NCBI GenBank assembly: GCA_016179185.1
Contig: JACORW010000101.1
Location: 2,204-66,203, forward strand
From: Gammaproteobacteria bacterium
GTDB lineage: Bacteria > Pseudomonadota > Gammaproteobacteria > Eutrophobiales > Eutrophobiaceae
Direction of reading: 5' to 3'
DNA length: 64,000 nt
The notes beneath the pieces are model-generated. The model saw only the letters and a list, made by a program, of their open reading frames with translations. It had not been told where the DNA came from and made no database searches. This document shows positions 2,948 through 32,280 of the stretch, piece after piece. Numbering within the stretch: position 1 is the stretch's first letter; each line of letters opens with the position of its first letter. Both the position numbers and the translations under genes were made by a program.

Positions 2948-4462
2948 TCACTCCTCCATCGCATTGACGAGCTGGATGCCGTCTCGACGCGCGGTCGCCT
3001 GCCAGTAGTAGAACACCGGCACACCGGTGAGGATGATGATGAGACCGGGCCAGGTGATGGCCGGCTGGTAGATGAACAGCACGATCAGGATGATCGCGGC
3101 AAGAATGATGTACAGCGCCGGCACCCAGGGATAGCCCCAGGCCTTGTACGGCCGCGGAATGTCAGGCCGGCGGCGGCGCAACACGAACACGCCGAGGATC
3201 GTGAGGATGTAGAAGATGATCGCGGCGGACATCGTGTAGGTGAGCAGATCGCCGTACAGATTGCCGTAGCTCAGCGTGCCGTCGGCCGCGGTCTTCACCG
3301 TGCGCGGAAACACGAACACGGACGCCCAGGCGCCCTGATAGATCAATCCCCATGCCGGCACGCTATAGCGATTCAATTTCCCCACCGTGCGGAAGAACAG
3401 CCCGTCCCGGGCCATGGCGTAGTAGGCCCGCGCCCCGGACAGGATCAACCCGTTGTTGCAGCCGAAGGTCGCGATCAGGATCACAATCGCCATCAGCACT
3501 GCTCCGAAACCCGGGAACACGACCTCCGCCGTGGCCGAGGCCACGAGATCGCTCGGGATCTGCTGCATCGTCTCCAGCGGCAGCGTGGTCAGATACGCGA
3601 CATTGGCCAGCAGATAGAGCCCGATGACCAGCATGGTGCCGAAGGCCAGCGACAGCGGCACGTTGCGCCGCGGCTCCTTCACTTCGCCGGCCGTGAACGT
3701 GATCATGTTCCAGGCATCGGCGGAGAACAGGGAATTGGTCTGCGCAACGCAGACGGCGATGAACAGGCCGAAGGGCACGGCCAGCGCCGTGATGGACGGC
3801 CCCACTTCCTGCAATGTGCCGCGCACCGTCCACAGATCGGAGAAGTTCACCGCCACCGCGTCCGCTTGCCAGCCGAGCGTCACGCCAAGCAAGACCAGCG
3901 CCACCAATGCGCCGATCTTCGCGAACGTGAACAGATTCTGCACCAGCCTGCCCCAGCGCAGGCCGTAGGTGCTGATCCAGGTCAGCACGATGATCACCAG
4001 CAGCGCCACCAGTTGCACCGCCGACAGCGACACGGCGTACATGGATCCCAGATGGATCGGTGCCACCAGGTAATTCGATTCGGACACCGATGGGATCAAC
4101 ACGCCCAGGTACCGGGCAAATCCGATGGCCACGGCCGCGATGGTGCCCGCCTGGATCACCGCGAAAAACGTCCATCCATACAGAAATCCCCACAGCGGGG
4201 ACAGGGCTTCGCGCAAATAGATATATTGCCCACCCGCCTTGGGCATCATCGTCGCCAGCTCGCCGTAGCTCAGCGCCGCGGTGATGGTGAGCAACCCGGT
4301 GATGGCCCAGGCGACCAGCAACCAGCCGGGTGATCCAACCTGCCGGGCCATGTCCGCAGAGACGAGAAATATGCCGGAGCCGATCATGGAGCCGGCCACG
4401 ATCATCGTGGAATCCAGCAGGCCGAGCCCGCGGACGAGTCTGGGTTCGTCAGTCATCGTCAA
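2948..4462 (-). CDS. APC-family amino acid permease
   Basis: 504 aa with about 12 predicted TM segments and an N-terminal GSMIGSGIF motif characteristic of amino acid/polyamine/organocation transporters. Confidence 0.8.
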   Translation of the reverse strand: MTMTDEPRLVRGLGLLDSTMIVAGSMIGSGIFLVSADMARQVGSPGWLLVAWAITGLLTITAALSYGELATMMPKAGGQYIYLREALSPLWGFLYGWTFFAVIQAGTIAAVAIGFARYLGVLIPSVSESNYLVAPIHLGSMYAVSLSAVQLVALLVIIVLTWISTYGLRWGRLVQNLFTFAKIGALVALVLLGVTLGWQADAVAVNFSDLWTVRGTLQEVGPSITALAVPFGLFIAVCVAQTNSLFSADAWNMITFTAGEVKEPRRNVPLSLAFGTMLVIGLYLLANVAYLTTLPLETMQQIPSDLVASATAEVVFPGFGAVLMAIVILIATFGCNNGLILSGARAYYAMARDGLFFRTVGKLNRYSVPAWGLIYQGAWASVFVFPRTVKTAADGTLSYGNLYGDLLTYTMSAAIIFYILTILGVFVLRRRRPDIPRPYKAWGYPWVPALYIILAAIILIVLFIYQPAITWPGLIIILTGVPVFYYWQATARRDGIQLVNAMEE

Positions 4463-5408
4463 ACGCCGTCACGCATACCCCATTCTGGGTATGCGCTGCG
4501 TACAGCAAACCGTCAGTGTTGGATTGTGCGCAGAGGTTGCCATGGCAATCCACCGCAATCATGCCACCCTTGCCGCCGAGGATCGTCACGCGCTGATGGA
4601 TAACCTCGTTCATCGCCTCCCTCAACGCAAGTCCTTTCAGCTCCATCAGTGCGCAGACCCGGTACGCGGCCACCGATCGGATGAAAAATTCGCCCTGGCC
4701 CGTGGCGGACACACCGCACCAACGGCTGTCTGCATAGGTACCGGCTCCGATCAGCGGAGAATCCCCGACCCGCCCCGGAAGTTTGTTCAAGGTTCCGCCG
4801 GTGGAGGTGCCGGCGACAATCCGGCCATTGCGATCGCGCACTACACAACCCACGGTGCCGAACGTGCGGCCGGCCCCTTCCCGCGATCTCTGCGAGGGCG
4901 GCGCTGCATTCTGCAAGTTGCGCAGCCGCTCGCGCATGGCCGGCGTGACGAACCACGCCGGGCCGGCCTGCTCGATCCCCTGTTCCCGGGCAAACCGATC
5001 CGCGCCTTCGCCCTGCAGCAACACATGGCCGGATCGCTCCAGCACGGCGCGGGCGGCGCGGATGGGATTGCGCGCAGTCGCCACACCCGCGACCGCACCG
5101 GCGCCCAGATCATCTCCGCGCATGATCGCGGCGTCGAGCTCGACGTTGCCCTCGGCGGTCAGTGCCGAACCGCGGCCGGCATCGAACTCGGGACTGTCTT
5201 CGAGCATGACGATGGCGGCCTCCACTGCGTCCACGCCGCTGCCGTCCCTGTTCAGAATCTCCCCTGCCGCCCGCGCGGAGGCCGCGAGGGTCTTTTTGAT
5301 CTTCGTCACGACCGCTTCGTTGCGGCGCCGCTCCGCCGACAGAAACCCGCCATGGACGATCACGGCCCAGCCCGCGGATCCTCCCTCGACATGGCATCCT
5401 GCCGGCAT
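4449..5408 (-). CDS. iaaA: isoaspartyl peptidase / L-asparaginase (Ntn hydrolase, plant-type asparaginase family)
   Basis: HGGAG-like N-terminus (IVHGGF). The autoproteolytic GTVG threonine nucleophile sits in TFGTVGCVVRD, and a TSTGG motif follows. Start taken at the internal Met (MPAGCHVEGG). Confidence 0.75.
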   Translation of the reverse strand: MPAGCHVEGGSAGWAVIVHGGFLSAERRRNEAVVTKIKKTLAASARAAGEILNRDGSGVDAVEAAIVMLEDSPEFDAGRGSALTAEGNVELDAAIMRGDDLGAGAVAGVATARNPIRAARAVLERSGHVLLQGEGADRFAREQGIEQAGPAWFVTPAMRERLRNLQNAAPPSQRSREGAGRTFGTVGCVVRDRNGRIVAGTSTGGTLNKLPGRVGDSPLIGAGTYADSRWCGVSATGQGEFFIRSVAAYRVCALMELKGLALREAMNEVIHQRVTILGGKGGMIAVDCHGNLCAQSNTDGLLYAAHTQNGVCVTAFDDD

Positions 5409-5412
5409 GGGA

Positions 5413-5913
5413 TCAATCGCTGTTGTAATCCGGGATCCCGGCGGTGATTTCTTCGTTGCGCCGGGCAACCTCGCGGCGCATGTCGCGACGCATCGCCGCC
5501 GCCTCGTATAACTTGCGCTCGAACGTGGTGCTGATTTCCAGCGGCGGCGCCGGGATCGGTTTGCCGTCCTCGCCCATGGCCACCATCGTGAAGTAACAGG
5601 AGTTTGTGTGGCGCCGGGTCTTGCTGCGCAGATCCTCCGCCATCACCCTGACTCCGACCTCCATGGACGATTTGCCGACATAGTTCACATTGGCCCGGAA
5701 CGTCACGAGTTCGCCGACGCGGATCGGCTCCTTGAACGCAACCTGATCCAGCGACACTGTGACGACATAACTCTTGCAATAACGCGCCGCGCAGGCATAG
5801 GCCACCTGGTCGAGCAGCTTCAGCAATGCGCCGCCGTGCACGTTGCCGGCGAAGTTTGCCATCTCCGGCGTCATCAGCACGGTCATGTGCAGGGACTTTT
5901 CCTGAACTTCCAT
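5413..5913 (-). CDS. acyl-CoA thioesterase (hotdog fold, YciA-like)
   Basis: About 165 aa, with the NVHGG motif of YciA/Acot-type hotdog thioesterases (ANFAGNVHGGALLKLLDQVAYACAARY). Confidence 0.75.
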   Translation of the reverse strand: MEVQEKSLHMTVLMTPEMANFAGNVHGGALLKLLDQVAYACAARYCKSYVVTVSLDQVAFKEPIRVGELVTFRANVNYVGKSSMEVGVRVMAEDLRSKTRRHTNSCYFTMVAMGEDGKPIPAPPLEISTTFERKLYEAAAMRRDMRREVARRNEEITAGIPDYNSD

Positions 5914-7011: not shown

Positions 7012-9939
7012 TTACGGATCCTCGTTCAGAAGGCTCTCGTTCAGATCGATGTGATAATGGTCATCGTGTCCAAGGAGCGGCTTGATCGTCGAGCTGAGCG
7101 TTGCACCCGCATCGAGTTCCAGAAGTACGGTGTTATCCGCTGCGGTGATTTTTCCGTCCCGGATCAGGCCCCAGGCCCAGCCACTCGGAAGCGGGTCATG
7201 GGGACGGCCAATGATGGTGAATACCTCGCCGACAATGGGATTGCTCGCCAGATTGGCCAGACCGGTCCGCTGGTCGAGGATCCATTGCCTCAGCTCCTCC
7301 GTCGCAGCCTCATCCCCCAGCACGGCATTGGTCGCCAGTTCCTCCGCCGCCAGATAGTTCAGCAAACCGAAGGGATCATCAGTCCCGGCACTGTAAAGTA
7401 CGTCGCCAAAATGGAAGATGTCTATGTCGGTTCCGGATTTGTGGCCCGCATGCCCGATGTTTCGACCATGCTCCCCCGAAATGTCGTTTATCCGAGTGAT
7501 CAGCGACCCGTACGTTTCCAGCCACTCGAATGTTCCCTTCGAGGCCCAGTCATCACCGCCGACATCCCGCTTTCCGCCGTAGCGGAGAATACCATCGGGC
7601 ATGCGCCACAGCGCCTTTTCAGAGCCGCTGTAGAGCGTGGCGCTCGCCGGCTCACCGTTCACGGTTGCCTCAAACTGGAATTCATACTTGATGTTGTGCG
7701 CCTCAGGCGGCGTTCCATTCACCGGTGAGGTCCTGGGGTTGTCGCCGCCAAAGGTAACCGGCACCCGAAACTCCCTGGGCCCGTAACCCGCCGTAATGGG
7801 TTTTCCGCTGAACGCTGTTTTGCCCAGCGTATCGCCTGCCCCCAGCAACAGTTTGACCGTGACATTGGTGATGTCCGCGGCCTTGACACCGGCCGGAGAT
7901 ATGATCTTGAAATCGTACCACTTGTGAAAGTGGTTCGAACTCAGCCGGCGCGGCACGCTGAAGAAGGTTCCATCCTTGTCCGATCCGGGCATAATCAACT
8001 GGATGTTCAACTCCTGGCCGGCCACCGCGAGCGTCGCGTCCACATAGGTCGGCAGGATGTCGTCGCCGATATTCGTTGCCGACCCCGTCACCGTGATCGC
8101 CGCGTCCTGATCAACGGTGAGCAGCGAGACGTCCAGTGACTCCTTGATTAGCCCGGTGGATCCGGTGGGATCCCAGAAGGGTTCCAGGCTCACCTGCGAA
8201 TTCACGTTCCGTGATATGGAAAACAGCCGCGTCCCGTCGTTGGCAACAACGGCGAGGTCCCAGACATCGTTAAATATACTTTGCGAAAGCACGAATTCCG
8301 GATATTCGGTGGTGATGACCTGGTAGGTCAGTTCCAGTTTTTTCGTACCCATGGGCACCAGCAGTGTCGCCGTGTCCTGGACGCGCTGGTCCTCGAAATC
8401 GGCCGCCGCGCTGATCGTGACCTGCGCCGTCGCCGCGGCCACCAGTCCCTGCGGCGGTGCCCGCGGCACATCCGGCGCCTTCGCGCTTTTTCTCCTGCGC
8501 TGCATTTCCATGGGCCGCGGTTTCAGCAACGCGGGCGCGCTGATGATCGAAAACGGCGGCACGCCATTGACATAATCTTCCGGACCCAGCAGCGTGATCT
8601 CCAACTGCGTCGCGCCCGTGACAAAAAGCGCGCCGCTGCTGCTGTAAGTGACTTCTCCTTCCTGGTGCTCCAGTTCGAATGCGACGTTTCCCGCGGGCAC
8701 GCCGGTGAGCGTGAAGCTGCCGTCCGCCGCGGTGGCGGCGAACGCCTCGACCTTGGTCCCGAGAACGCGAAACAGGATCTCAGCGCCCTGCGTGGACAGC
8801 TCGGGATTGGATGGCGGCGCAACCACCTGGCCGGAGAGCGAATAACGACCGACACGGAAGGAGAGTGTCCCGTCCAATGACGTACCGTTGGCGGTGCTCG
8901 CGGAGACATGCAGGATCTGCTCGCCGTCCACGCCGAGAATATCGCCAAGGTAGGCTTCCGAAACGGTTCGGATCTCGCCGTTGCCGAGTATTTCAAAGCG
9001 ATCCGTGACATCCACGGTCGTCCCGGTCTGCACCTGTTCCACACTGGCGTTTCCCAGTTGAGTCGGCACCAGCGCGCTGCCGGAGGAGTTCCTGAAAGTC
9101 ACGCTCAACTCGGATGTCGAGGCGGGAACCACCGGGGAAAGATCACCGGTCAGGCGATGATCCAGCGCCACGGCCAGGCCCGCTCCGGTCATCAGCAGCT
9201 TGACCGTCTTGGTCGTGTCCCGGCGGATGGTTACCAGCTTTCCCGCCCCGGCCAGGTAGGGGTCGAAGGCAGTCACGCGATGTTTGCCTGCCGTAGCCTG
9301 GAAATCCAGCACGCCGTTATCCAGCGTCTCGCCGACGAGCTCATTGTCCAGATAGACGGGGATCCCGGCGGCCGCGGGATTCTTCTTGCCTTCGTAAAAC
9401 GTCTGCACGGAAATCGTCCCGGTTCCGGAGTGTTCCACGGATATGCTGACATCAATGGCGGACAGCGGTCGCGCGCCGCTTTGCAATGCAGCGGTCAATT
9501 TTTTCCGTTTCAGGGAGGCAACCTGGACGTCGCTGGGCAATTCCATGAACTCGGTCGCGCTGGCTGCCGCCTTGCCGAACAGGACGATGGAACCCGTGAC
9601 CGTATCTTTCGCCAGGGTTTCGCTTGGAGTGACGATCAGCGTCAGCGTCAGGGTCTGGCCGTTCGCGAGACTTTCTACGCCTCCATACTCGATTGTGGCG
9701 AATTTTGCGATGCTCTTGCTGAGCAGCACCTGGAAGTTGCTGATGGCAAGATTTGCCGTAATGGTGTTGGTCCGGGACACCGTCTGGCCGGCATTGGCGT
9801 TTACGTTCCATTCTGCCTGCGCCCAGTCCACGGCGTTGGCGGCATGCGCCGGCGTGGATACCAGAGTCACAAAGGAGAGGCAGAATATTGCGGTCACCGC
9901 AAGATACTGCGGAAGCATGAGTTTGCGAATATTTAGCAT
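7012..9939 (-). CDS. large secreted multidomain protein with a C-terminal MepA-like (peptidase M74/LAS-family) murein endopeptidase domain
   Basis: Signal peptide MLNIRKLMLPQYLAVTAIFCLSFVTLVSTPAHA, with GGAGG 7 nt upstream of the ATG at 9939. The C-terminal motifs GHAGHKSGTDIDIF and GHDDHYHIDL match the HxxxxxxD ... HxH zinc ligands of MepA-type LAS metallopeptidases. The remainder is beta-rich repeats. Confidence 0.55.
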   Translation of the reverse strand: MLNIRKLMLPQYLAVTAIFCLSFVTLVSTPAHAANAVDWAQAEWNVNANAGQTVSRTNTITANLAISNFQVLLSKSIAKFATIEYGGVESLANGQTLTLTLIVTPSETLAKDTVTGSIVLFGKAAASATEFMELPSDVQVASLKRKKLTAALQSGARPLSAIDVSISVEHSGTGTISVQTFYEGKKNPAAAGIPVYLDNELVGETLDNGVLDFQATAGKHRVTAFDPYLAGAGKLVTIRRDTTKTVKLLMTGAGLAVALDHRLTGDLSPVVPASTSELSVTFRNSSGSALVPTQLGNASVEQVQTGTTVDVTDRFEILGNGEIRTVSEAYLGDILGVDGEQILHVSASTANGTSLDGTLSFRVGRYSLSGQVVAPPSNPELSTQGAEILFRVLGTKVEAFAATAADGSFTLTGVPAGNVAFELEHQEGEVTYSSSGALFVTGATQLEITLLGPEDYVNGVPPFSIISAPALLKPRPMEMQRRRKSAKAPDVPRAPPQGLVAAATAQVTISAAADFEDQRVQDTATLLVPMGTKKLELTYQVITTEYPEFVLSQSIFNDVWDLAVVANDGTRLFSISRNVNSQVSLEPFWDPTGSTGLIKESLDVSLLTVDQDAAITVTGSATNIGDDILPTYVDATLAVAGQELNIQLIMPGSDKDGTFFSVPRRLSSNHFHKWYDFKIISPAGVKAADITNVTVKLLLGAGDTLGKTAFSGKPITAGYGPREFRVPVTFGGDNPRTSPVNGTPPEAHNIKYEFQFEATVNGEPASATLYSGSEKALWRMPDGILRYGGKRDVGGDDWASKGTFEWLETYGSLITRINDISGEHGRNIGHAGHKSGTDIDIFHFGDVLYSAGTDDPFGLLNYLAAEELATNAVLGDEAATEELRQWILDQRTGLANLASNPIVGEVFTIIGRPHDPLPSGWAWGLIRDGKITAADNTVLLELDAGATLSSTIKPLLGHDDHYHIDLNESLLNEDP

Positions 9940-9969
9940 GACAGCCTCCGGACAGCTCAATAAATCAAT

Positions 9970-10014: not shown

Positions 10015-13000
10015 CTATTGATCCAGCAGGAATTCCCGGATTGCCTCCAGGATTGACGATGCTGCCCGCTCATTCACGCGCGGATTCCTGCCGGTGTCAG
10101 CTTCCACCTTGTCGTTCACTCCGTCGCCGTCAGTGTCGCTGTCGTTTGGCGCAGTGCCGAGCTGGAATTCCTCAAAATTGGTCAGGCCGTCGGCATCGCC
10201 GTCCAGGTCGCGGTCCTGGTCGCTCAATGGATTCAGCCCGTTATCGCCCTCATAGCCATCGGCCATGCCATCCCCATCGGAGTCCGGTGCATTCACCAGC
10301 GTTCCCAGTTGCGACTCCTCGAAATTCGTGAGCCCGTCCGAATCGAGATCCAGATCTCTGTCAGCGCCATTCAGCGGGTCAAGGCCATGTTGAATTTCAT
10401 AGTCGTCCAGCATCCCGTCGCCGTCATCATCCACGTCACTGACATTGCCCGTCCCGTCACCGTCCGTGTCCAGTTCGAAATTGACGGTCAGCGCGACGTC
10501 CTGGGTCACGGTGAAGGCACAGGCGGCGGACGCGGATGAGCAGAGATCGGAGCCACCCCACGCCGCAAAGACGGAATATGGGTCGGCCACCGCCGTCAGC
10601 GTCACCAAAGAATCCTGCGGAAAACTTTCCGAACAATCGTCGCCACAGACGATCCCCGCCGGCACCGACTGAACGAGGCCGGTTCCCGTCGCCGCCGGAT
10701 CCTTTGCCACGGAGACATTGAATCCGATCGGCGCGGTATAGGCGCCCCGGCGATAGATCATGCCGAAGTCTCCGTCGCTCAACCACAGACTCTGCCCCCC
10801 GCTCAGCGTGATCCTGTCGCTCTGCACGGCCTGGCTATATAAAGAGGATCCGGTCGCCGCGCCGGCGTCGGGTTTCGAGAACACAATCGCCCCATCGTCC
10901 CCCGTATACCCGGGAACCGAGTAGGAGTAACCGGGAATGGCCGCAATCAGGCCGACCTGGCCGGTAAACAGATCGCCGGCGTAGGCATTCGCCTGGGAGA
11001 TCCCGGACTGGAAGGCATCGAAAGTCAGGAACCGATCGCTGGTCTGCGACAACGCCGGAAAGCCGGTATCCAGTCCCTGGATGGGCGCCACGATCATGCG
11101 GATCTGCGACGTGGAAAGTTCCACGGCGTAAATGCTCCATAGCCCCAGTGCCGATCCGCCGGTATAGGTGACCTCGTTGAATGCGTCGTAGATGAGCGAC
11201 TTTCCGTCCCGGCTGAAGTCCATCGCGTCCGCCGTCACGACGTTTATCGTGCCGCCGTCAATTGCCGGCGCTTGCAGCTTGATGGTTCGATCATTGCTGC
11301 TATCGGCGAGATCCACGAATTCGATCTTGTTTTCGGGGAACCCCTGCGCGTCCAGCAGCACAAATGCAAACTGCTCTCCGCTGGGGGAAACCGCAACGGA
11401 AAATACCAGGCCCGGCAACCCCAGGCACGATTCGACTTCACTCACGCCGGCATTGGTGTTGATTGCGCAGAGATCGTTGATGGAATCCACAAACCAGGCG
11501 AGGGCCCCGTCGCCGGTGACGCTCGGGCGCGTAAATGCAACGGTGCCGCCGCTCAGAAATACCCCGACCGGACCGTCGTTCAAGGCCGTTTCCCGGCGCC
11601 CGAGGAAGAAACCGCCGTAAAACGAGTCGTAAAAAACGAACGCCGTGGAATCGGGGCTGCTTATGGGCGGCTGAGTCGGCGGCGGCGGTGTCGGGGGCGC
11701 AGCGAAGATTTCCACCGCGTCGAATGCCGCGGCGGTCGTGTTCGCCTGGACCGATCCCGCGCCGAACAGTTCTTCGGCCGCCGCGACGGCATTCAACCGC
11801 GCATCCACAAAGTCGGCATCCGGAAACAGCTTGGTGGTCAGGGCCCGATAAAATATTTTGGCTGCATCGAGCGTGCCGATGGCGCCGGGGAGTCCTTCCG
11901 CCAGCAGGTAGAACGCATGATTGACTATGCTGCTGTTGAGATGCACGCCGCCGTTATCCTGCGTCGTGTTGATGTACCCGCTCATGCTTGATGGGCAGGG
12001 AACGCCGAGGCAGTCCACGCTGCCCGGATTTTTCATGTTCCGAAATACCTGGCCGACGTCCTCCCCCACCTTCCAGTCTGCATCGCCCTGCGTACGCGTT
12101 TCCACCATCACGCCGAATATGTCCGCAAGCGACTCGTTCAGCGCGCCGGACTGGCCCTGATAGATCAGATCTGCGGTCGAACTGATCACGGCGTGGGTCA
12201 TTTCGTGGGCCACCACGTCGAGCGCGCCGGCATAGATCCGCTTGTCGCCAAAGGCCATGATTTGATTGCTTGCATCCCAGAACGCGTTGTCGAAATCGAG
12301 CCCGAGTCGCACCAATGCCTGCATGTTCGCGCCCTGCCCGTCAATGGAATTCCTGGCATGTCTTTCGAGGTAGTAGTCATAGGTCTCCGCCAGCGCCCAG
12401 GCCGCGCTCACCGCATCGGCCAGCCATCCGGAGTTCGGATTGGCGGATACCACGTCGGATAGCGGTGTCGGGTAGGACTGGGGATCAGAAGTCGCCGGCT
12501 TGTTCTTGGCATCCAGCACGATGATGCCGCCGATGGTCTGTGACGGGTTCGGAGGCGTGGACGACGGGTTGTACATCGTCTTGCTGGTGTCAACCATATA
12601 GTAGCTGGCGCCGGACTGCCAGACATCGAGAGCACGGCTGATGCCGAACAGATCGAGTCCCGATCCCTGGACATTTGCATTCATGATCCGGTTGAACTTC
12701 CTCAGCACGTTGCCGTGCATGGCATCCACGATTACCACCCAGCTCTCGCTGACGGAGACATCCACTTGGGTCTTCCAGGCTAGCCGGTAGGGCGCATCCC
12801 GCGGCGCAAACACGATGAGTTCGGGTGCGGCCACCCCGGCGTGTTCGTCCGCAGTGACTTCGCTGCGCGCCAGTGCCATCGCCCGCCCCTGGTCCACGGC
12901 CGGCCGATCCAGCAGTTTCCGCGGAATGACCCGGTGGGCGCCCGCCATGAGGTCCACGTGCCCCTGCCCGTCCAGTTGCACCAGCAGCCCCGACGGCCAG

Positions 13001-13596
13001 ACCCGCAATCCCCTGTGCCGTTGCTCGAAGCGGACCTGGGTGCGCCCGAGCTCATCCTGACCCTGGCCAAGAAAGCGGTACTCCTGATCCGGATCGCCCA
13101 CGCCGATTACGTTCCGGTACTTGCGCAGAAACTGCTCGGCGGTGGCCCGTGAGCTGGGCAGGCCTTCCTGGAGCTTGATGCCCCGGATCTGACGCGGGGT
13201 CCCGGTGCGGGAATCCATGCGCACTTCCAGGGGGCGGAGCAAAGGCGAAATCTGTTGTGCCGCGATACTTCTTGTCCGCTGCACCGATTTGATGCCGCCG
13301 CGGGCCGTGCTCCTTGCCGCCTGGGCACCGGGTGCTGATGTTGCGCGCCATTGCGCGATCCAGGTCTTGAGCTGAACTATCCGGGGATCCGCGGCTCGAC
13401 CGGAGGCCGGCGCGGTTGCATGGATCGCGGGCGCACTGGACGCGGGGATCAGCTTGACCTGGGTCTGGGCGCCTTGGGTCTGCGCGGCCGATGCCGCCGG
13501 CAATCCTGCCAGAACGAGAACACTCCAAACACACTGCCGTCGCAGCGTATTAACGCGGGGGTTTGCGGAGCGCATCTTGTTGTAGTTCTTATGCAC
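10015..13596 (-). CDS. giant secreted M4 (thermolysin-like) zinc metalloprotease with InlB-B-repeat-like, Ig-like and C-terminal calcium-binding TSP3-type repeats
   Basis: HExxH (VVAHEMTHAV) and the downstream ESLADIFG glutamate motif of family M4. N-terminal signal peptide (start ambiguous: GTG 13596 or ATG 13575). C-terminal repeats DxDxDGxxDxxE (DTDGDGTGNVSDVDDDGDGMLDDYE...) and the tail GRNPRVNERAASSILEAIREFLLDQ are shared with the S8 giant. Confidence 0.8.
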   Translation of the reverse strand: MHKNYNKMRSANPRVNTLRRQCVWSVLVLAGLPAASAAQTQGAQTQVKLIPASSAPAIHATAPASGRAADPRIVQLKTWIAQWRATSAPGAQAARSTARGGIKSVQRTRSIAAQQISPLLRPLEVRMDSRTGTPRQIRGIKLQEGLPSSRATAEQFLRKYRNVIGVGDPDQEYRFLGQGQDELGRTQVRFEQRHRGLRVWPSGLLVQLDGQGHVDLMAGAHRVIPRKLLDRPAVDQGRAMALARSEVTADEHAGVAAPELIVFAPRDAPYRLAWKTQVDVSVSESWVVIVDAMHGNVLRKFNRIMNANVQGSGLDLFGISRALDVWQSGASYYMVDTSKTMYNPSSTPPNPSQTIGGIIVLDAKNKPATSDPQSYPTPLSDVVSANPNSGWLADAVSAAWALAETYDYYLERHARNSIDGQGANMQALVRLGLDFDNAFWDASNQIMAFGDKRIYAGALDVVAHEMTHAVISSTADLIYQGQSGALNESLADIFGVMVETRTQGDADWKVGEDVGQVFRNMKNPGSVDCLGVPCPSSMSGYINTTQDNGGVHLNSSIVNHAFYLLAEGLPGAIGTLDAAKIFYRALTTKLFPDADFVDARLNAVAAAEELFGAGSVQANTTAAAFDAVEIFAAPPTPPPPTQPPISSPDSTAFVFYDSFYGGFFLGRRETALNDGPVGVFLSGGTVAFTRPSVTGDGALAWFVDSINDLCAINTNAGVSEVESCLGLPGLVFSVAVSPSGEQFAFVLLDAQGFPENKIEFVDLADSSNDRTIKLQAPAIDGGTINVVTADAMDFSRDGKSLIYDAFNEVTYTGGSALGLWSIYAVELSTSQIRMIVAPIQGLDTGFPALSQTSDRFLTFDAFQSGISQANAYAGDLFTGQVGLIAAIPGYSYSVPGYTGDDGAIVFSKPDAGAATGSSLYSQAVQSDRITLSGGQSLWLSDGDFGMIYRRGAYTAPIGFNVSVAKDPAATGTGLVQSVPAGIVCGDDCSESFPQDSLVTLTAVADPYSVFAAWGGSDLCSSASAACAFTVTQDVALTVNFELDTDGDGTGNVSDVDDDGDGMLDDYEIQHGLDPLNGADRDLDLDSDGLTNFEESQLGTLVNAPDSDGDGMADGYEGDNGLNPLSDQDRDLDGDADGLTNFEEFQLGTAPNDSDTDGDGVNDKVEADTGRNPRVNERAASSILEAIREFLLDQ

Positions 13597-14048: not shown

Positions 14049-15266
14049 CTACACCACCAGCTCGTTCAGCCCCAATATCGCCACCAGCACCGACATGATG
14101 ATCAGCGCAATCAGACCGCCGAGTCCGAGGATCAGGACCGGCTCCAGCAACGCCAGCGCCCGCTTGATCGCGATGCGCACATTCCCGTCGTAGATCTCGG
14201 ACGTTTTGAGCAACATCTGATCCAGTTGGCCGCTCTCCTCACCCACTTCCATCAACTGCACCGCGAGCGGCGGAAACAGTCCCGACTTGCGCAGCGGGCC
14301 GGTGAGCGGCAGGCCCTGTTCCAGGCTGGCGCCCATGTCCTCGACCACGGCGGCCAGCGCGCGGTTCCTGACCACGTCGCCCGCGAGACGGATGCCGGTC
14401 AGGATCGGAACGCCGCTGCCCAGCAGGATCCCCAGTGTGCGCGTAAACCGCGCCGTCTCGAACTCCCGGATCACGGTGCCGATGAGCGGCAGCCGGAGAC
14501 AGGCCAGGTCCCAGCGCAAGCGCGGCGCCGGTTGTTCAAGCCGCTTCTTCACGATCCACCCGAGCACAACCAGTCCCGCAAGCAGCGGCAGCCAGGCGTC
14601 GCGGGCGATCCCTGCGGCACCAAACACGAGCCGGGTCAGTAACGGCAGTGTTGCGCCGGCGTCCTCGAACAACGGAATGAACTGCGGCACCACGAACACC
14701 ATGATCGCCGCGAGAGAACACAGCGCCACGACGCACAGGAGTGCGGGATATATCAGCGCCGTCTGGACCGCGGAGCGCAATTCCTGCGACTGTTCCAGGT
14801 AGGTGGCCAGGCGATCGATGACCGGGGGCAGTTCACCGGCAGCCTCGCCCGCGCGGATCAGGTTCACATGCAGCGCAGTGAAATGACGGGGATGCTGCGC
14901 CAGCGCTTCGGAAAGCGATGCGCCACGCTGCACGCTGTCCTGGATCTCCTGGATCAGGCGTTGCAGGGGCGGCGACTGCACGACTCTCGCCAATGTGATG
15001 AGCGCTTCATCCAGCGCCAGACCGGCCTGCAACAGCGTCCCCAACTGCCGCGTCAGGGCGATGATATCCCCGCGCGAAATCAGGCGGGGTCTGACCCCGA
15101 ATGGGGTCAGACCCCATTTCCACGTTGCAATACCCGGGTCCGCGCTGATGGGCAGGTGCCCCTGATCGCGCAGTTGCGCCACCGCGGCGTCCCGGGAGTC
15201 AGCCTCGATCTCCCCCTGTACCACCTGGCCGCCGGGCGCGACGGCCTTGTAGCGAAACTGCGTCAT
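14049..15266 (-). CDS. gspF: type II secretion system inner-membrane platform protein GspF
   Basis: About 405 aa with two GspF/PilC-type repeats (...ALTRQLGTLLQAGLALDEAL...), three TM segments, and operon context with gspE. Contains an in-frame family-2 palindrome (WGLTPFGVRP). Confidence 0.9.
   Translation of the reverse strand: MTQFRYKAVAPGGQVVQGEIEADSRDAAVAQLRDQGHLPISADPGIATWKWGLTPFGVRPRLISRGDIIALTRQLGTLLQAGLALDEALITLARVVQSPPLQRLIQEIQDSVQRGASLSEALAQHPRHFTALHVNLIRAGEAAGELPPVIDRLATYLEQSQELRSAVQTALIYPALLCVVALCSLAAIMVFVVPQFIPLFEDAGATLPLLTRLVFGAAGIARDAWLPLLAGLVVLGWIVKKRLEQPAPRLRWDLACLRLPLIGTVIREFETARFTRTLGILLGSGVPILTGIRLAGDVVRNRALAAVVEDMGASLEQGLPLTGPLRKSGLFPPLAVQLMEVGEESGQLDQMLLKTSEIYDGNVRIAIKRALALLEPVLILGLGGLIALIIMSVLVAILGLNELVV
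15084..15115. repeat. family-2 palindromic element located in-frame inside the gspF coding sequence
   Basis: gcggggtctgaccccgaatggggtcagacccc on the plus strand, translated within GspF as W-G-L-T-P-F-G-V-R-P in the variable linker between the N-terminal domain and the first conserved repeat. Confidence 0.85.
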
Positions 15267-27063: not shown

Positions 27064-27723
27064 TTAATTGCCGTCGTCGCCGGCCTTCGGTGGCACGGCC
27101 GGCGCAGGGTTCACCTCCACCGCCTTTGACTCCTTATTCTGTACCTCTTTCTGTGCCTCTTTGGGCGGTTCCTGCTGTTTGGGCAGGGGAGGCGCGGTCT
27201 TTTTGCCGGCGGCCGGGGACCCCTGAATGCGGAGTTCCAGAGTCCGGACTTCGCTGCCTTTTTCAAGCACCACGGCCTCCGGTTGGATCTCCGCCAGGGT
27301 CCAGCCATTCACGGCCTCACCCACCGCGATCTTGTGCACACCTTTGCCGCGAGCGGTCTCCAGTATGGCCAGGGGCCGTTCATTCGTGATCACGACCGCG
27401 GTAAGTATCATCTCCGCGGGATCCGTCGTTCCGGCGGATAGCTGCGCTGCTCCCGCTGTGGGAGCCGCAGTGGCGATCTGGGCTTTTCGGTCCGGCGAAA
27501 ACAGCGGACGTTCGGTAATCGCGGCATACTCCTGCACGGGCGGGAACGGACGCGCGTCCGGTACCGGTGCCGCCGGGGCCTCGGCGATCAACTTCGCGCC
27601 GCTGTCCGCCTTCACTTCCACCGGCCGCGCGCGGAGCTCGACGACCAGCACGCCGGCAAGCGCCAGCGTTCCCGCGGCCAGGATAAGTTGCAGGATTAAT
27701 TCCGCATTGCGCGTCAGCCGCAT
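27064..27723 (-). CDS. gspN: type II secretion protein GspC/GspN-like (XpsN-like)
   Basis: N-terminal TM anchor (ELILQLILAAGTLALAGVLVV), a periplasmic domain and a Pro/Lys-rich C-terminus. Its position between gspM and gspD matches the Xanthomonas xpsN arrangement. Sequence-level assignment is weak. Confidence 0.5.
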   Translation of the reverse strand: MRLTRNAELILQLILAAGTLALAGVLVVELRARPVEVKADSGAKLIAEAPAAPVPDARPFPPVQEYAAITERPLFSPDRKAQIATAAPTAGAAQLSAGTTDPAEMILTAVVITNERPLAILETARGKGVHKIAVGEAVNGWTLAEIQPEAVVLEKGSEVRTLELRIQGSPAAGKKTAPPLPKQQEPPKEAQKEVQNKESKAVEVNPAPAVPPKAGDDGN

Positions 27724-27726
27724 GAT

Positions 27727-28299
27727 TCACCTGCCGAGAAAACCGGTTGCCGTGAACTGCAGATCGAGATTTCCCGCCGTCGCCGGCGCGCGGCGTGATC
27801 CGCCGCCCTCCCGTGCCCGGACCAGAACGTTATCCAGCAACAACAACGGACGCCCCGATTCCACCGCATGCAGAATGTCCCGCAGCGCCTCCACGTCCAG
27901 ACTGACCTGCACTTGCAAGGACACCGGCGGTAGCGTTTCCCCTTTCTTCGCCGCCATCACGCGCGCGGTCTTCAGACTGCCGCGGTGACTTTCAATGACA
28001 CCTTCCAGGTGCCGCTGTAGTTCCGCCGCCGCCAGCGCGGGCGATTTGCCGCCAAGAAAGGCCGCATTGTCCGCCGGCTTGCCACGCAGCGCCGCGATCG
28101 CTGCCTGCAATTCCGGCACGCGGGCGCCGGCATGCGACATCTTGCCGTACTGGAACTCCAGGATTTCGACCCGTCCGCCGAAATGTTCACGCAGGGCAAG
28201 GGCCGGCGCAACGCAGACGCCATGGATCAGCGCGAGAATGACGACCGTGACACCGGCGCAGATGGCACCGTGCTGCCCGCGCGTGAGCGCCGGCATCAT
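27727..28299 (-). CDS. gspM: type II secretion system protein GspM
   Basis: About 190 aa, single N-terminal TM (AICAGVTVVILALIHGV). Start ATGATG overlaps the gspL stop (ATGA-type coupling). The long ORF-track extension to 28971 is an out-of-frame artifact overlapping gspL. Confidence 0.7.
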   Translation of the reverse strand: MMPALTRGQHGAICAGVTVVILALIHGVCVAPALALREHFGGRVEILEFQYGKMSHAGARVPELQAAIAALRGKPADNAAFLGGKSPALAAAELQRHLEGVIESHRGSLKTARVMAAKKGETLPPVSLQVQVSLDVEALRDILHAVESGRPLLLLDNVLVRAREGGGSRRAPATAGNLDLQFTATGFLGR

Positions 28300-29378
28300 C
28301 GGGAAGGACTCCCGGCGATCCGGGCCGAGACGTGGAACCGGTCCCGCTGCGTCGCGCTGCTGCGCGTGGTGGCGGACGCGAACTGCACGTCCCTGAAATG
28401 ACGCGAGCGATCCAGCAGTTCGATGATCGCGCCGGCGGCCTCCGATTCGCCCTGAAGCTCGATGCGATCGCCCCGGATACTCATCTGGCTGACCCAGGTG
28501 TTGTCCGGCAGCGCCACGGTAAGTTCTCTCAGAAGATCGATGACCGCCACGCGCGTCCCCAGCGTGGCGGCGAGAAACCGCGGGCGGGCCAGCAACAGAT
28601 TGTGTTCTTCCATAAGACTGCGCGCCTGCTCCGCCTGCGGTCGCAATGCGCCGATCCGGGTTTCCAGCTCGCGGACGCGCCAGGCCTGATGGGCCGGCGG
28701 GAGATACAGCGCGGCAAGCAGCGAGGCGAGCAGCAACCAGAAAAGCCGCCGCGTCCGGGCGGATACCATGGGCGCCGGCGCGGGGCGCCGCTCCATCGGC
28801 AGGAGATTCCACTCCACTGCGTCGTCCGGGACCGTAACCCGATCGGGCCGGAGTCCCCAGCGACTGATCCGGTCCTGCAGCGGCTCCAGGTAATCGCGGC
28901 GCGCCACCAGCAATTCCACGCGCAACCGATCCTGTTCCGGCTCGCGCGCGATGATGCGGCAGTCGAACCACACCTTCTCTTCGGTAAACGGCGTCTGCCG
29001 ATCCATGTCGAAGGCAATTACCTTCCTCAAATTTCCCTCCGCTGCCAGGGGCAGAACCAGCGGCTTGCAGAGCACGCGGCTTGAAGGGATACGGACGACG
29101 ACGTTTATGCCCTGTTCACCACGGGAATCGAGGAACGGTTGCAAATACTCTGAAACCTCGCCGCCTTCCCCCTGCCACGACAGAACCTCGCGCCGCACGC
29201 CGGTTTGACCGGCGACATGGGTGATGGAACCGGAATCCGGATCAATGTCGAGCAACAGGAGATCCGGCGGCTGTACCAGGCGGCGGCCCATCGCGGCCGG
29301 CATGAGGCACGCCATGCCGGTCAGCCACCAGCGATAGAACTCCCGCAACGCCGCCACAGGGTGCACTCCGGTCATCAC
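28296..29378 (-). CDS. gspL: type II secretion system protein GspL
   Basis: 360 aa with a cytoplasmic actin-like domain, a central TM (LFWLLLASLLAALYL) and a periplasmic domain. Translationally coupled to gspK and gspM. Confidence 0.75.
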   Translation of the reverse strand: MMTGVHPVAALREFYRWWLTGMACLMPAAMGRRLVQPPDLLLLDIDPDSGSITHVAGQTGVRREVLSWQGEGGEVSEYLQPFLDSRGEQGINVVVRIPSSRVLCKPLVLPLAAEGNLRKVIAFDMDRQTPFTEEKVWFDCRIIAREPEQDRLRVELLVARRDYLEPLQDRISRWGLRPDRVTVPDDAVEWNLLPMERRPAPAPMVSARTRRLFWLLLASLLAALYLPPAHQAWRVRELETRIGALRPQAEQARSLMEEHNLLLARPRFLAATLGTRVAVIDLLRELTVALPDNTWVSQMSIRGDRIELQGESEAAGAIIELLDRSRHFRDVQFASATTRSSATQRDRFHVSARIAGSPSR

Positions 29379-30304
29379 AGCCAGGGATCCGTATCGGCGG
29401 GCGCATCGAGGGTGTTCCCCTCACGCCAGGACAGCACCGAATACGGCTCGGGCCTGCCGGCCTCGATGCGCACAACCGCTTCCAGGACCACGCGGCTGCC
29501 GGCCGCCTGCCCTGCGCTCGTGATCGTGACAATTCGGCCTCTCGCCTGGGAAAGAAGCCGTTCATCCAGTTTGACCGGCAGGGCCGCGCCGCCCGGGTCC
29601 GGCGCGGAGCGCTGCGCAAGGTATTGCTCCGCCTGCTTCGGCGTGATCCCCGGGAGGGCAAGCAGGACATCGCTCACCGCGACTTCGGGATTGATCCCGG
29701 TCTGGCCCGAGTAGACCGTCACGGCACCGCGCAGCCGGTCATAGAGTTCCGCGTCCACCCCGTGCACCAGGCGCAATTCATCCTTCGCCGTGAACGGTCC
29801 GTTTCTGGGTGCATGGCCGGCACCGGCGGCGGCGTAATCCTCCCCTTCCGCCCCGAATTTCCGCTTGCTGTCGTCGGCATCCCGCCAGTCCAGGATGGAT
29901 TGCAGGACCGACACCGATTCATTGCCGTCACCCGTTGCTGACTGGAGCAGGTTGTACAGGAGACCAAGATCGGCGGCATTGAGATCGATTCTGCCCGCTT
30001 CATCCTGGAGACCGATGGCCACCATGCCGTTTTCAAACGCAACATCATGGATCTCGCCCGCGGCCGGCCAGGTGTCCGGCTGCTGCGGGCGCAACAGTTC
30101 GCGCACCGCCAGCCACACGCCCGATTCCGCCAGCGCCCTGGCCTGCGCCGAGGCGCGCAGCCGCGCGGTCAACTCGGCCTCGGTTCGGGCGGTCATGCTG
30201 TAACTGCCCGCGAGCAGCGTCATCAGCGCCAGCAGCCACAGGACGATGGCGAGGACCACACCGCGCTGGCGGCCCAGGGTAGTGATTCTTTCCGAGCCCC
30301 TCAT
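29375..30304 (-). CDS. gspK: type II secretion system minor pseudopilin GspK
   Basis: About 309 aa. N-terminal prepilin-like hydrophobic segment (QRGVVLAIVLWLLALMTLLAG) lacking the conserved Glu5, as is typical for GspK. Operon position. Confidence 0.8.
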   Translation of the reverse strand: MRGSERITTLGRQRGVVLAIVLWLLALMTLLAGSYSMTARTEAELTARLRASAQARALAESGVWLAVRELLRPQQPDTWPAAGEIHDVAFENGMVAIGLQDEAGRIDLNAADLGLLYNLLQSATGDGNESVSVLQSILDWRDADDSKRKFGAEGEDYAAAGAGHAPRNGPFTAKDELRLVHGVDAELYDRLRGAVTVYSGQTGINPEVAVSDVLLALPGITPKQAEQYLAQRSAPDPGGAALPVKLDERLLSQARGRIVTITSAGQAAGSRVVLEAVVRIEAGRPEPYSVLSWREGNTLDAPADTDPWL

Positions 30305-30996
30305 TCCTCTGCACCGTGTTTGGGAGTTCCGAGTTCAATGACAAAAGGCGCGCGGACGGGCTGGGTATCGGCACGCAGGGCGACGGTCACCTCCGGCCAG
30401 GGCGGCGCATCCCGATCACCGTCGAACAAAACCTGCACGAGCTTCGGCAGGCGGGATTCGTTGTTCCAGGCCGCGTGCCATTGCAGCGGATCCCCGCGCC
30501 GTTTTTTGCCGTAATAGCGGAACGACACCGGTCCGATGCCTTCGATGACCGGCAACATCTCCGCGGCCGGATCATTCATGCCCGCGTTGACCGGCATGTC
30601 CCGGACGGAGTGGAGCGGCTGGTAAGCAACCATCAGTGCGCCGCGCCCTTCCTCCGCCGCCAGCCAGCTCAGCGTCAACCGGTGCAATGCGCCGGCGGCG
30701 GTGTGGGCCGGCAGCGGCGCGACGAGCTGCAGGCGATTACTGGTCCCCTGGAACATCAGGCGCCGGTGGTCGCCGTCGGTGATGTGGATCGGCACCGCCT
30801 GCTCGATCTCGCGGCGCAGAAAATGCAGGCCGAGTCTGAGGGCCTCATTGCCGTCCGCGCGCGCCATCGCCGTCTCCCAGCTCCGGCTGGTCACGCGCAG
30901 GCTTCCCAATATCGTCCCCAGAATAAGCGCCAGAATGGTCAGTGCCACCAGCACTTCCACCAGCGTGAAACCCGCGCTCCGCTGCCTGAACATCAT
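30301..30996 (-). CDS. gspJ: type II secretion system minor pseudopilin GspJ
   Basis: Prepilin N-terminus GFTLVEVLVALTILALI. Size and operon position. Confidence 0.8.
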   Translation of the reverse strand: MMFRQRSAGFTLVEVLVALTILALILGTILGSLRVTSRSWETAMARADGNEALRLGLHFLRREIEQAVPIHITDGDHRRLMFQGTSNRLQLVAPLPAHTAAGALHRLTLSWLAAEEGRGALMVAYQPLHSVRDMPVNAGMNDPAAEMLPVIEGIGPVSFRYYGKKRRGDPLQWHAAWNNESRLPKLVQVLFDGDRDAPPWPEVTVALRADTQPVRAPFVIELGTPKHGAEE

Positions 30997-31385
30997 TCCG
31001 CTCCAGGCCCGCCGCTTTCCGGTTTCAGGGTGGACAACCTGAACGATCGCGCTTTGCCCCGATCTTCCCAGCGCACCTCCACGTCCACGCGCCGGAGCCG
31101 CAACAGCGAGTCCAGTTCCGCGGGGGCGCCGTCCTGATACGGGCCCGTCTCAATGGTCCACAGATAACGCTCCGCCGCGACCCCGGACGCCGCAATGCCC
31201 GGCGCATCCGCGGCACTCAGCTCTGTCATCCGCGATTCGGCTATCGCCACGGCCCGGGCGTAGTCCCCCGCCTGAACCACGGAGGCCGTGCCGCGGGCGT
31301 AAATCTGGAATATGACGCCCAGCGCCAGCGCGGCGATGGAAAACGCGACCAGCGTTTCGAGCAGGGAGAAGCCGGCAGCGCGCAT
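30993..31385 (-). CDS. gspI: type II secretion system minor pseudopilin GspI
   Basis: Prepilin N-terminus GFSLLETLVAFSIAALALG. About 130 aa. Confidence 0.8.
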   Translation of the reverse strand: MRAAGFSLLETLVAFSIAALALGVIFQIYARGTASVVQAGDYARAVAIAESRMTELSAADAPGIAASGVAAERYLWTIETGPYQDGAPAELDSLLRLRRVDVEVRWEDRGKARSFRLSTLKPESGGPGAE

Positions 31386-31390
31386 GGAGA

Positions 31391-31867
31391 TCAGCGCGCC
31401 ACCGCAACGCCTCCGGTGATCCAGTTCACGTCAATCCGGTAGCTGCGGGCGGCATGTTCCAGCAGCACGCGCCCGCCGGTGGAGCTGCCGTCAGGGAAAA
31501 ACCGGATCCCGCCGGCGGATGCCGAGTTCCGCTCGGCGTCCGCCGTGGTCAGGGTAATGACGGCGTCCTTGGGCAGGGTCAGATCCCTGGTACGCTCATT
31601 GAGCGAAATGCGCTTCGCGTCCACGTCCACGCCGAGGACGGTTTCGCGGCCTGAAGAAACCGCCGTGTTGCGCGCCAGCCGCAACGCCGCGGCGACCTCG
31701 CGGGCGGCGCTGCTTACCTGCAACTTGTCCAGCGCCGGGGCGAAGACCGGCGGCACGACGGCCGCGGCCAGCGCCAGGATCGCCATGACGACCAGCAACT
31801 CGAGCAGCGAAAATCCCGGCGCGTGGCGGAACACGCTGCGCGGCGATTGCGCAATGTCCCTCGTCAC
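31391..31867 (-). CDS. gspH: type II secretion system minor pseudopilin GspH
   Basis: Prepilin N-terminus GFSLLELLVVMAILALAAA. About 158 aa. Confidence 0.8.
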   Translation of the reverse strand: MTRDIAQSPRSVFRHAPGFSLLELLVVMAILALAAAVVPPVFAPALDKLQVSSAAREVAAALRLARNTAVSSGRETVLGVDVDAKRISLNERTRDLTLPKDAVITLTTADAERNSASAGGIRFFPDGSSTGGRVLLEHAARSYRIDVNWITGGVAVAR

Positions 31868-32280
31868 TCCCAGCTCCGGATATCCTTTGCATCCCCCTCG
31901 CCGCCGGGTGCGCCGTCCGCGCCGAGGGAGACGAGTTCAAAGGCGGCCTGCTCTCCCGGATAACGATATTGGTACTCCCGGCCCCAGGGATCCTTCGGTA
32001 TGACGGATTTCTTCAGATACGGGCCATCCCAGGCGGGCATGCCGGCAGGCGGCTGAACCAGCGCGGCCAGGCCCTCGCCGGCGCTGGGATAGCGGCCGTT
32101 GTCCAGATAAAAGAGATCCAGCGCAGCGCCCAGGTCTTCTATCTGCAACCGGGCGGTGTCGGATTTCGCGCCGCCCAGGTGCTTCATCACCTGCGGCCCG
32201 ACCAAACCCACCAGCAGCCCGAGAATGGCAAGCACCACCAGCAATTCCACCAACGTAAATCCTCGAACCGGGTCACTCAT
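31864..32280 (-). CDS. gspG: type II secretion system major pseudopilin GspG
   Basis: GFTLVELLVVLAILGLLVGLVGPQVM prepilin N-terminus and the conserved LDLFYLDNGRYPS...GL.ALV core of GspG. 138 aa. Confidence 0.9.
   Translation of the reverse strand: MSDPVRGFTLVELLVVLAILGLLVGLVGPQVMKHLGGAKSDTARLQIEDLGAALDLFYLDNGRYPSAGEGLAALVQPPAGMPAWDGPYLKKSVIPKDPWGREYQYRYPGEQAAFELVSLGADGAPGGEGDAKDIRSWE

Follow-up and report, generated by a model that had tools for sequence, protein, structure and literature searches.

A recurrent C-terminal helix tag on the TSP3 arrays of two giant proteases encoded in a gammaproteobacterial type II secretion operon

The stretch of DNA considered here (the window) is 64,000 nucleotides of contig JACORW010000101.1, from a metagenome-assembled genome (MAG) of a gammaproteobacterium. 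Its minus strand carries a type II secretion system (T2SS) operon and, within it, the genes of two giant proteases, an M4 (thermolysin-family) metallopeptidase and an S8 subtilase. A preliminary description of this DNA held that both proteins end in thrombospondin type 3 (TSP3) DxDxDG repeats followed by a common tail, and that the tail is a candidate sorting or retention signal. The likeness is readily confirmed: minus-strand translation of both open reading frames (ORFs) reproduces the quoted C-termini exactly (the plus-strand frames at both sets of coordinates give meaningless translations), and BLASTP aligns the two tails with 59% identity over 79 residues (E=1e-27). Comparison with metagenome sequences, described below, indicates that the tail is a real, recurrent and modular C-terminal element of otherwise unrelated proteins, which is referred to here as the GRNP-VNE helix tag. 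The features that bear on it directly are as follows.

10015-13596, minus strand: ORF of the M4 protease, 1193 codons
10015..13575, minus strand: gene of the M4 (thermolysin-family) metallopeptidase, assigned by Pfam; its ORF reaches 13596
10093..10470, minus strand: TSP3-type, putatively calcium-binding array of the M4 protein, with six distinct D.D.DG loops
10018..10092, minus strand: terminal tail of the M4 protein, GRNPRVNERAASSILEAIREFLLDQ, with its stop codon at 10015-10017; a divergent member of the tag family
17067-23924, minus strand: ORF of the S8 protease, 2285 codons
17067..23768, minus strand: gene of the giant S8 subtilase, 2233 amino acids as annotated, between gspD and gspE; its ORF reaches 23924
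17136..17435, minus strand: TSP3 array of the S8 protein, one Cys-containing eukaryote-type TSP_3 repeat together with bacterial-type EF-like loops
17070..17135, minus strand: terminal tail of the S8 protein, 22 residues, with its stop codon at 17067-17069; a canonical member of the tag family

From its N-terminus the M4 protein reads as a signal peptide, an FTP propeptide, the Peptidase_M4 and M4_C domains, a middle region of ~330 residues that matches no family, an InlB B-repeat-like segment, the TSP3 array and the tail. It matches the NCBI MAG Gammaproteobacteria protein P0002 (1067 amino acids) with 100% identity; the annotated start of P0002 lies ~120 codons downstream of a Met codon at 13575 (region 13215-13596) that opens a typical signal peptide, MRSANPRVNTLRRQCVWSVLVLAGLPAASA. 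This annotated start is probably too short, for the alignment with the homologue P0005 begins at residue 45, which favours the longer start with the signal peptide. The S8 protein, 100% identical to the NCBI protein P0122 (also MAG Gammaproteobacteria), combines a fervidolysin-type prodomain with S8 subtilase, CARDB, Y_Y_Y and TSP_3 domains (Pfam).

Most of what the two C-termini have in common turns out to be the TSP3 repeat itself. The M4 loops alternate between the forms DGM.D.YE...GL[DN]P and DGLTNFEE..LGT.P, and the pattern of a 12-residue EF-hand-like loop, D.D.DG.....[DE], matches seven times in M4 (two of the matches overlap, leaving six distinct) and four times in S8. Residues 2163-2185 of S8 reach 25.2 bits against Pfam PF02412 (cutoff 25), M4 reaches 18.8 bits against PF18884, below the cutoff of 25, and both proteases have partial NCBIfam matches to the thrombospondin-type proteins MtsC/MtsD/CglD. 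The best sequence matches in PDB, to EF loops of calmodulin, are weak and fit an EF-hand-like loop. Binding of Ca2+ by both arrays would be expected from their family. A scan of a genome collection with the two tails brought up generic TSP3 relatives at no fewer than 328 tblastn-confirmed loci (at least), spread over many bacterial phyla and over Asgard and other archaea. TSP3 modules are also reported on secreted enzymes with type II signal sequences in S. degradans (PMC2386152).

The preliminary description had singled out a block running from DGLTN[FI]EE to NP.VNE as conserved between the two proteases. It is so conserved, yet the tag-specific part of it is smaller than had been supposed: DGLTN[FI]EE..LGTxPN..D[ST]DxDGVxDKVE reads as an ordinary two-part bacterial TSP3 repeat, each half of it a 12-residue EF-hand-like loop, and NP.VN[DE]AA is a common TSP3 inter-repeat linker (for example, GLNPLVNDAALDPDGDG). 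Among the genome-collection matches, GRNPLINE occurs only at L001, where it is internal: the S8 protease encoded there has DKTEVDNGRNPLINEDG within the chain and then a DUF11 domain. Most bacterial TSP3 arrays end without a helix of the tag type.

Because only the last 12-17 residues could be specific to the tail, an independent test of the tail was needed. Metagenome contig DNA was scanned with the pattern D.D.DG..D..E...G..P.[VI]NE, which leaves unspecified the residues after NE and the two between G and P. There were 103 matches, in 40 of which a stop codon follows 10-17 codons past NE (mode 12); these 40 terminal endings, the further carriers for which the preliminary description had suggested looking, come from 39 loci and comprise 37 distinct sequences. 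GR.P is present in all 40 terminal matches, as against 5 of 60 internal ones (Fisher p=9e-23), although the pattern left R free, and the full GRNP in 31 of the 37 distinct tails. The ten residues past NE have a mean Kyte-Doolittle hydropathy of 1.79±0.45 in terminal and -0.41±0.94 in internal matches. The alignment consensus is GRNP[LAT][VI]NE[APG][AV][VIL][LIM]x[ILV][IL][NDQ][SG][LI][LE][LD][DE]-stop, so that the part peculiar to the tag can be described as GRNPx[VI]NE, a predicted hydrophobic helix of 10-17 residues, an acidic end and the stop codon. The 'amphipathic acidic helix' of the preliminary description has to be given up: in the consensus of the family the helix is hydrophobic and its end acidic. 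A hidden Markov model (HMM) of 21 positions was made from the 37 metagenome tails alone, with no sequence from the window. Since it scores the S8 tail at 36 bits (profile positions 1-21, ending one residue before the stop), the terminal tail can be taken to lie far beyond chance.

Two variations on the theme came up in the same material. The L146 protein (= P0281, 887 amino acids) has three internal segments of the form GRNP.VNE+[GA]AVV.LLQ.LLL, each followed by PD.D.DG and TSP3 repeats in a higher-order repeat of ~160 residues. At L113 and L138 (contig Ga0316204_10000008, 1.1 Mb) a variant G[TR]HPQVNEAALMIVINRMVL continues into NNNNRKRKVIL...; it stops 38 residues past NE at L138 and runs beyond the fetched stretch at L113, and may represent a different subclass with a basic extension.

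The two tails of the window do not represent the family equally well. Each has the core directly after a TSP3 loop, GRNPRVNE in M4 and GRNPSVNE in S8. The second feature of the tag, an aliphatic helix with a central N/D, an acidic end and the stop, is complete in S8 and only partly present in M4, where the helix has 17 residues, three more than in S8, and is more polar (hydropathy 0.86 against the family mean of 1.79); the 11 bits that the M4 tail scores against the HMM come entirely from GRNPRVNE. AlphaFold2 (AF2) models both tails as alpha-helices, at residues 218-234 of a 235-residue C-terminal fragment of M4 (pLDDT about 60-70) and at residues 67-80 of 81 in S8 (pLDDT 74-80), the two preceding repeats being the most confident part of both models. 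At the DNA level the tails align with a mean column identity of 78% on the measure of the tool used. Because the differences lie mostly at synonymous third-codon positions and the GC content of third codon positions (GC3) differs (~0.67 against 0.36-0.50), the likeness points to selected conservation of the protein; the same synonymous differences and GC3 gap rule out a recent gene conversion or copy between the two tails.

The proteins that carry the tag are a varied company, which the two proteases of the window enlarge further. Carrier domains in the metagenome set include RHS/YD-repeat, NHL propeller with C13 peptidase, two further S8 subtilases, PPC/Big, sortilin/BNR with DUF11, terpene-cyclase/TED-like, Big_5, GDSL lipase, cohesin, cyclophilin and DUF3108, and the GC content of the carrier loci ranges from 38 to 61%. 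Of the 22 full-length carriers, most begin with a hydrophobic, signal-peptide-like segment (judged by eye and with a Kyte-Doolittle window), three have lipoboxes, and not one looks cytoplasmic; tails on cytoplasmic proteins had been named in advance as evidence against a sorting function. OGT81276.1, a hypothetical protein of a groundwater gammaproteobacterial MAG, is a carrier, and a plasmid search found a diverged ending, KRHPAVHEPALQIVLDYLL, too divergent for an HMM score, on WP_163836657.1 of the cultured gammaproteobacterium Spartinivicinus ruber. In the window and in L154 two carriers are direct neighbours. The only recurrent neighbours of carrier loci are RHS proteins (6-7 loci) and GGDEF-EAL regulators, the latter probably by chance; for so rare a family, the association with RHS at 6-7 independent loci exceeds chance. 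In L095, L101, L117, L136, L151, L184 and L185 (6408-16121) the carriers are themselves RHS/YD-repeat proteins or have an RHS-core protein encoded nearby in the same orientation, in most cases immediately beside them and in L151 ~1.7 kb off; a plasmid of cultured Spartinivicinus ruber is among these loci. At L151 the carrier is a cohesin protein, and the gene of a dockerin protein precedes it in the same orientation, ~1.7 kb upstream and separated from it by small ORFs, an architecture that by analogy is that of anchoring scaffoldins.

Absence of the tail from orthologues in related genomes had likewise been named as a point that would speak against it. The tail is missing from all of the other 119 S8 homologues listed, and P0005 is alone among the M4 homologues in ending in something similar, GEDPRVNP+LLLRTIILEE, which scores about 0 bits (-0.8) against the tail HMM and is at best a distant variant. 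Because the M4 and S8 homologues are in general without it, the tag can be said to travel as a cassette of its own, independently of the catalytic domain. A segment of ~150 residues of the M4 protein, B-repeat plus TSP3, is 44-46% identical to its counterparts in the S8 proteases of L001 and L154. Where the tag sits in the M4 protein of the window, its homologues (P0003-P0121) have PEP-CTERM-like tails, GGGGGCFI boxes, dockerin-like duplicated segments, a transmembrane segment with an Arg cluster, or RRRSxRH. Taken together, these endings mark the position as a swap site, by all appearances, for anchoring and sorting modules.

No Pfam or NCBIfam model covers the tail, even at E<=10, the models of the repeats ending before it; the PDB sequence search gave only the weak calmodulin EF-loop matches, and Foldseek gave none. 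Full-text searches of the literature brought up TSP3 repeats, both on enzymes that are secreted and in the vicinity of T2SS-like loci, and no account of this ending. As far as these searches go, the tag is a not previously described ending of TSP3-bearing exported proteins. A word-indexed protein search with the 64-residue M4 tail returned a single irrelevant TSP3 fragment.

The proteases stand in the operon in the order gspG-H-I-J-K-L-M-C-D, S8, gspE-F, M4, a 982-residue protein and a metallophosphoesterase. The remaining rows of the feature list are the following.

27064..32280, minus strand: T2SS gene block from gspG to the gspC-like gene (Pfam)
31864-32280, minus strand: gspG (Pfam T2SSG, 6e-39)
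31391-31867, minus strand: gspH (Pfam GspH)
30993-31385, minus strand: gspI, called from position and an N_methyl motif only (3.4e-4; 20.5 bits, cutoff 21.2)
30301-30996, minus strand: gspJ (Pfam T2SSJ)
29375-30304, minus strand: gspK (Pfam T2SSK)
28296-29378, minus strand: gspL-like gene, PilM/PilN-like
about 27727-28300, minus strand: gspM, subtype b (Pfam T2SSM_b)
27064-27723, minus strand: gspC-like gene (weak T2SSC, 1.2e-3), without a PDZ domain
24470..26623, minus strand: GspD secretin (Pfam Secretin, 4e-49; Secretin_N; GspD N0)
15274-16992, minus strand: GspE ATPase with an MshEN N-domain (Pfam T2SSE, 1e-140; MshEN)
14049-15266, minus strand: GspF (Pfam T2SSF, 2e-59)
7012..9960, minus strand: exported protein of 982 amino acids, encoded downstream of M4 and ending with a LAS/MepA-like HxH motif; not a tag carrier

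By the cluster criterion the T2SS operon reads as complete, with the GspI and GspC calls weak and no prepilin peptidase in the window. That the proteases depend on it may be supposed from the position of their genes. GC3 is 0.52 in the S8 gene, evenly from one end to the other and through the tail, and 0.75-0.82 in the gsp genes on either side; the S8 gene looks to have been acquired horizontally, already carrying the tag, and fixed between gspD and gspE, in which case the tag would already have been functional in another lineage. A relative is represented by a short metagenome contig, L139, whose GspD and GspE are 80% and 57% identical to those of the window. The order there is gspD, fragments of an IS3 transposase, the remnant of the 3' end of a gene, its tail 72% identical to that of S8, and gspE. 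Because that order is kept, the arrangement of a tag carrier between gspD and gspE is common to two lineages. At 500-1510 of L139 the transposase fragments (IS3 family) lie between gspD and the remnant, 68 residues that still end in the tag, and the carrier gene appears to have been disrupted by the insertion sequence. The 982-residue protein (975 in the preliminary description, which credited it with a weaker version of the tail, LNESLLNEDP) proved to have neither a TSP3 repeat nor GRNP nor a match to the tail HMM.

Several other features of the region may be noted in passing. The MshEN domain of GspE (15274-16992) is of the type known to bind cyclic di-GMP in MshE, which hints at cyclic di-GMP control of this T2SS. 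The operon is followed by an asparaginase (4449-5468) and an amino-acid permease (2948-4462), and at 50806-56186 a third, smaller S8 peptidase (527 amino acids, no tag) is encoded beside a TonB-dependent receptor and a PilT-like ATPase; with these genes the region looks dedicated to protein foraging. Two ORFs resemble IS200/Y1 transposases (2261-2821 and 49005-49712), and there is a second stretch of low GC (0.51-0.53) at 46000-50000. An ORF of 319 residues upstream of gspG (32585-33544) is probably not a gene, having no family match and an odd composition.

Comparison with known systems helps to place the tag. Bacterial TSP3 proteins (PF18884 TSP3_bac and PF02412 TSP_3, in OmpA-family proteins, the CglD/MtsC/MtsD proteins of Myxococcus and the glucanases of Saccharophagus) share with the carriers the tandem DxDxDG calcium loops and export, and the conserved block of the preliminary description up to GRNP.VNE is this repeat; what sets the carriers apart is the GRNP-VNE helix, before which the Pfam and NCBIfam models stop. 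PEP-CTERM, GlyGly-CTERM and MYXO-CTERM (the substrates of exosortase, rhombosortase and myxosortase) are, like the tag, short modular signals placed at the very C-terminus of many Sec-exported proteins that are otherwise unrelated, and a locus or community has several carriers; MtsC, by its NCBIfam name, even combines TSP3 repeats with MYXO-CTERM. Cargo bearing GlyGly-CTERM and MYXO-CTERM uses the T2SS. The tag differs from all these in that its hydrophobic stretch is only ~12-13 residues long and broken by N/D, that it ends acidic and has no basic cluster, and that it lacks a PEP, GG, Cys or LPXTG motif. The preliminary description was right to set the tails apart from PEP-CTERM, GlyGly-CTERM and LPXTG: there is no transmembrane segment, no signature motif, no Arg/Lys cluster and no NCBIfam match at E<=10, the tails end in D/E, and assignment to any of these classes or to MYXO-CTERM is rejected. 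No sortase-type gene was found near carrier loci.

The substrates of type I secretion systems (T1SS) offer another parallel, in that large secreted proteases of the RTX kind, whose C-terminal signal is uncleaved, have acidic calcium repeats immediately upstream of a short, helix-prone, acidic and hydrophobic C-terminal peptide. RTX repeats are, however, nonapeptides of the GGxGxD form, whereas tag carriers have TSP3 repeats and N-terminal Sec signal peptides, and the machinery adjacent here is a T2SS, not ABC/MFP/TolC. With N-terminal signal peptides present, and with RTX repeats and T1SS genes not found in the window, a T1SS signal was rejected. The type I dockerin, finally, is a calcium loop plus helix at the C-terminus of diverse secreted enzymes that docks to a partner, and M4 homologues have dockerin-like segments where the tag would be. 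In contrast, the tag has no match to Pfam Dockerin_1, has a ten-residue GRNP spacer between loop and helix and only one helix with no duplicated F-hand, and no cohesin-like partner for it was identified.

What might the helix do? The reading to which we tentatively incline, conscious that it may well be wrong, is that it docks or anchors the exported protein, either on the cell surface or within a multi-protein assembly. Both proteases would be exported by Sec and then probably pass through the T2SS. Outside, the TSP3/EF-hand-like DxDxDG loops would bind extracellular Ca2+ and become a stiff acidic stalk, at the end of which GRNPx[VI]NE would lead into a strongly aliphatic alpha-helix of 10-17 residues terminated by Asp/Glu and the free carboxylate. 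The helix may then sink its hydrophobic face into the outer leaflet or a partner protein, so that the enzyme stays docked, whether to the surface or to an assembly, playing the part that dockerins, PEP-CTERM-type tails or transmembrane anchors would play at the same position in homologous proteases. Docking is suggested because the tag is modular and known anchors occupy its place in homologues, because the L151 cohesin carrier has a dockerin protein so close upstream, and because the hydrophobicity of the helix is too high for an exposed peptide. The signal-peptide-like N-termini of most carriers, the T2SS setting in the window and in L139, the arrival of the S8 gene with its tail and the helix predicted for both tails speak for it as well.

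A good deal weighs against this reading. The tail opens with NP.VNEAA, the usual linker of TSP3 repeats, and the tag clearly derives from that linker. The M4 tail has lost much of its hydrophobicity, and the three lipoprotein carriers are already anchored. No conserved partner, receptor or processing enzyme was found beside the 39 carrier loci. Only the window and L139 have adjacent T2SS genes, none being found in the other 38 carrier loci, and the co-operonic, exported 982-residue protein lacks the tag. There are also internal copies, three in L146/P0281 and a single one in L142 and in L115, every one followed directly by Pro-Asp and another calcium loop, and these are easier to reconcile with a structural element than with a signal dependent on a free C-terminus. 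In an exhaustive HMM search (a profile of 39 positions from 3 sequences against 1.84 billion representatives; 17,289 matches) the tail stood at the end in 0 of the best 150, a result uninformative on distribution, since summed multi-repeat scores rank giant TSP3 proteins first. The idea of a sorting or retention signal thus fares unevenly: what stands is a modular tag on unrelated proteins that bear signal peptides, and what does not yet stand is the function, which we only infer and to which the missing partner gene and the internal copies are objections.

For the same reasons (internal copies, origin from a linker, no partner gene found) two other explanations are serious rivals. The helix might be the exiting helix of the last EF-hand-like loop, packing on the preceding repeats and so ending and stabilising the array, with no part in sorting or docking. 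On balance we consider such a structural cap unlikely, though far from negligible. It would account for the helix being always joined to a TSP3 loop through the invariant GRNP, for its derivation from the ordinary linker NP.VND-AAL, for the copies between calcium loops in L146, L142 and L115, for the lack of a partner gene at carrier loci, and for the confidence of AF2 being best (pLDDT 74-90) for the last two repeats together with the helix. It fits less easily with the eight or nine large aliphatic residues in 13, which exceed what two 6-residue helices can bury, or with the ending of most bacterial arrays without any such helix, and a cap would require neither the strict end position (10-17 residues before the stop in 40 cases) nor the acidic terminus. 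Alternatively, the helices of several chains may bundle into dimers to pentamers, much as in the coiled coil of eukaryotic thrombospondins and COMP, the three copies of L146 doing likewise. The helix is hydrophobic round most of its circumference with a conserved central Asn/Asp, one chain (L146) has three copies, and carriers are paired side by side in the window and in L154; but about two heptads are too short for a stable lone coiled coil and no heptad periodicity was demonstrated, so that oligomerisation strikes us as rather improbable.

The setting of the genes invites a further proposal, that the tail is a linear T2SS targeting signal, which GspC, GspD or the pseudopilus tip would read in the periplasm to select the cargo. 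The carriers are embedded between gspD and gspE and after gspF, L139 keeps the order gspD-carrier-gspE, and a foreign S8 gene bearing the tag has been fixed inside the operon. Against these stand the 38 other carrier loci with no adjacent T2SS genes (weak evidence), a local GspC-like protein without a PDZ domain, the untagged exported product of the same operon and the internal copies. T2SS cargo known so far is, to our knowledge, recognised in the folded state and by no linear signal, which counts against the proposal too, and we regard it, weakly supported as it is, as hardly probable. The most sceptical view, that there is no specific element but a low-complexity likeness of acidic repeats or a recent copy between neighbouring genes, could appeal to a D-rich, repetitive region and to two genes only 3.5 kb apart. 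It has to face the mostly synonymous differences between the tail DNAs with their GC3 of 0.67 and 0.36-0.50, a motif common to 37 independent metagenome tails, and the 36 bits given to the S8 tail by an HMM free of window sequence; the terminal metagenome matches and the tail-HMM scores refute it, and virtually no credence is left to it.

There is also a bolder reading, a long shot in our estimation: the GRNP-VNE helix on its TSP3 stalk would be the address tag of an unrecognised post-Sec pathway of sorting or retention in environmental Gammaproteobacteria, a linear, transferable signal read by a T2SS, or by a surface receptor allied to it, by which diverse enzymes and RHS toxins would be exported and then tethered. 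There are precedents for what such a finding can bring, LPXTG, PEP-CTERM, GlyGly-CTERM and the C-terminal domain of the type IX secretion system (T9SS) each having led to a dedicated sorting machine and to prediction of secretomes from sequence. From such signals the tag differs in having no transmembrane segment, in its acidic end and in its fusion to a calcium-binding stalk, and it marks dozens of unrelated exported proteins, with two carriers inside a T2SS operon. Should it turn out to be only a structural cap, the domain model of TSP3 would still be refined. Should it direct retention, assembly or T2SS selection, a simple sequence rule would pick out a class of proteases and toxins displayed on the surface of uncultured Gammaproteobacteria, the tag would be a portable tool for surface display, and it would give a handle on how T2SS cargo remains cell-associated; on the address-tag reading, the selection or retention of T2SS cargo would become testable from sequence alone.

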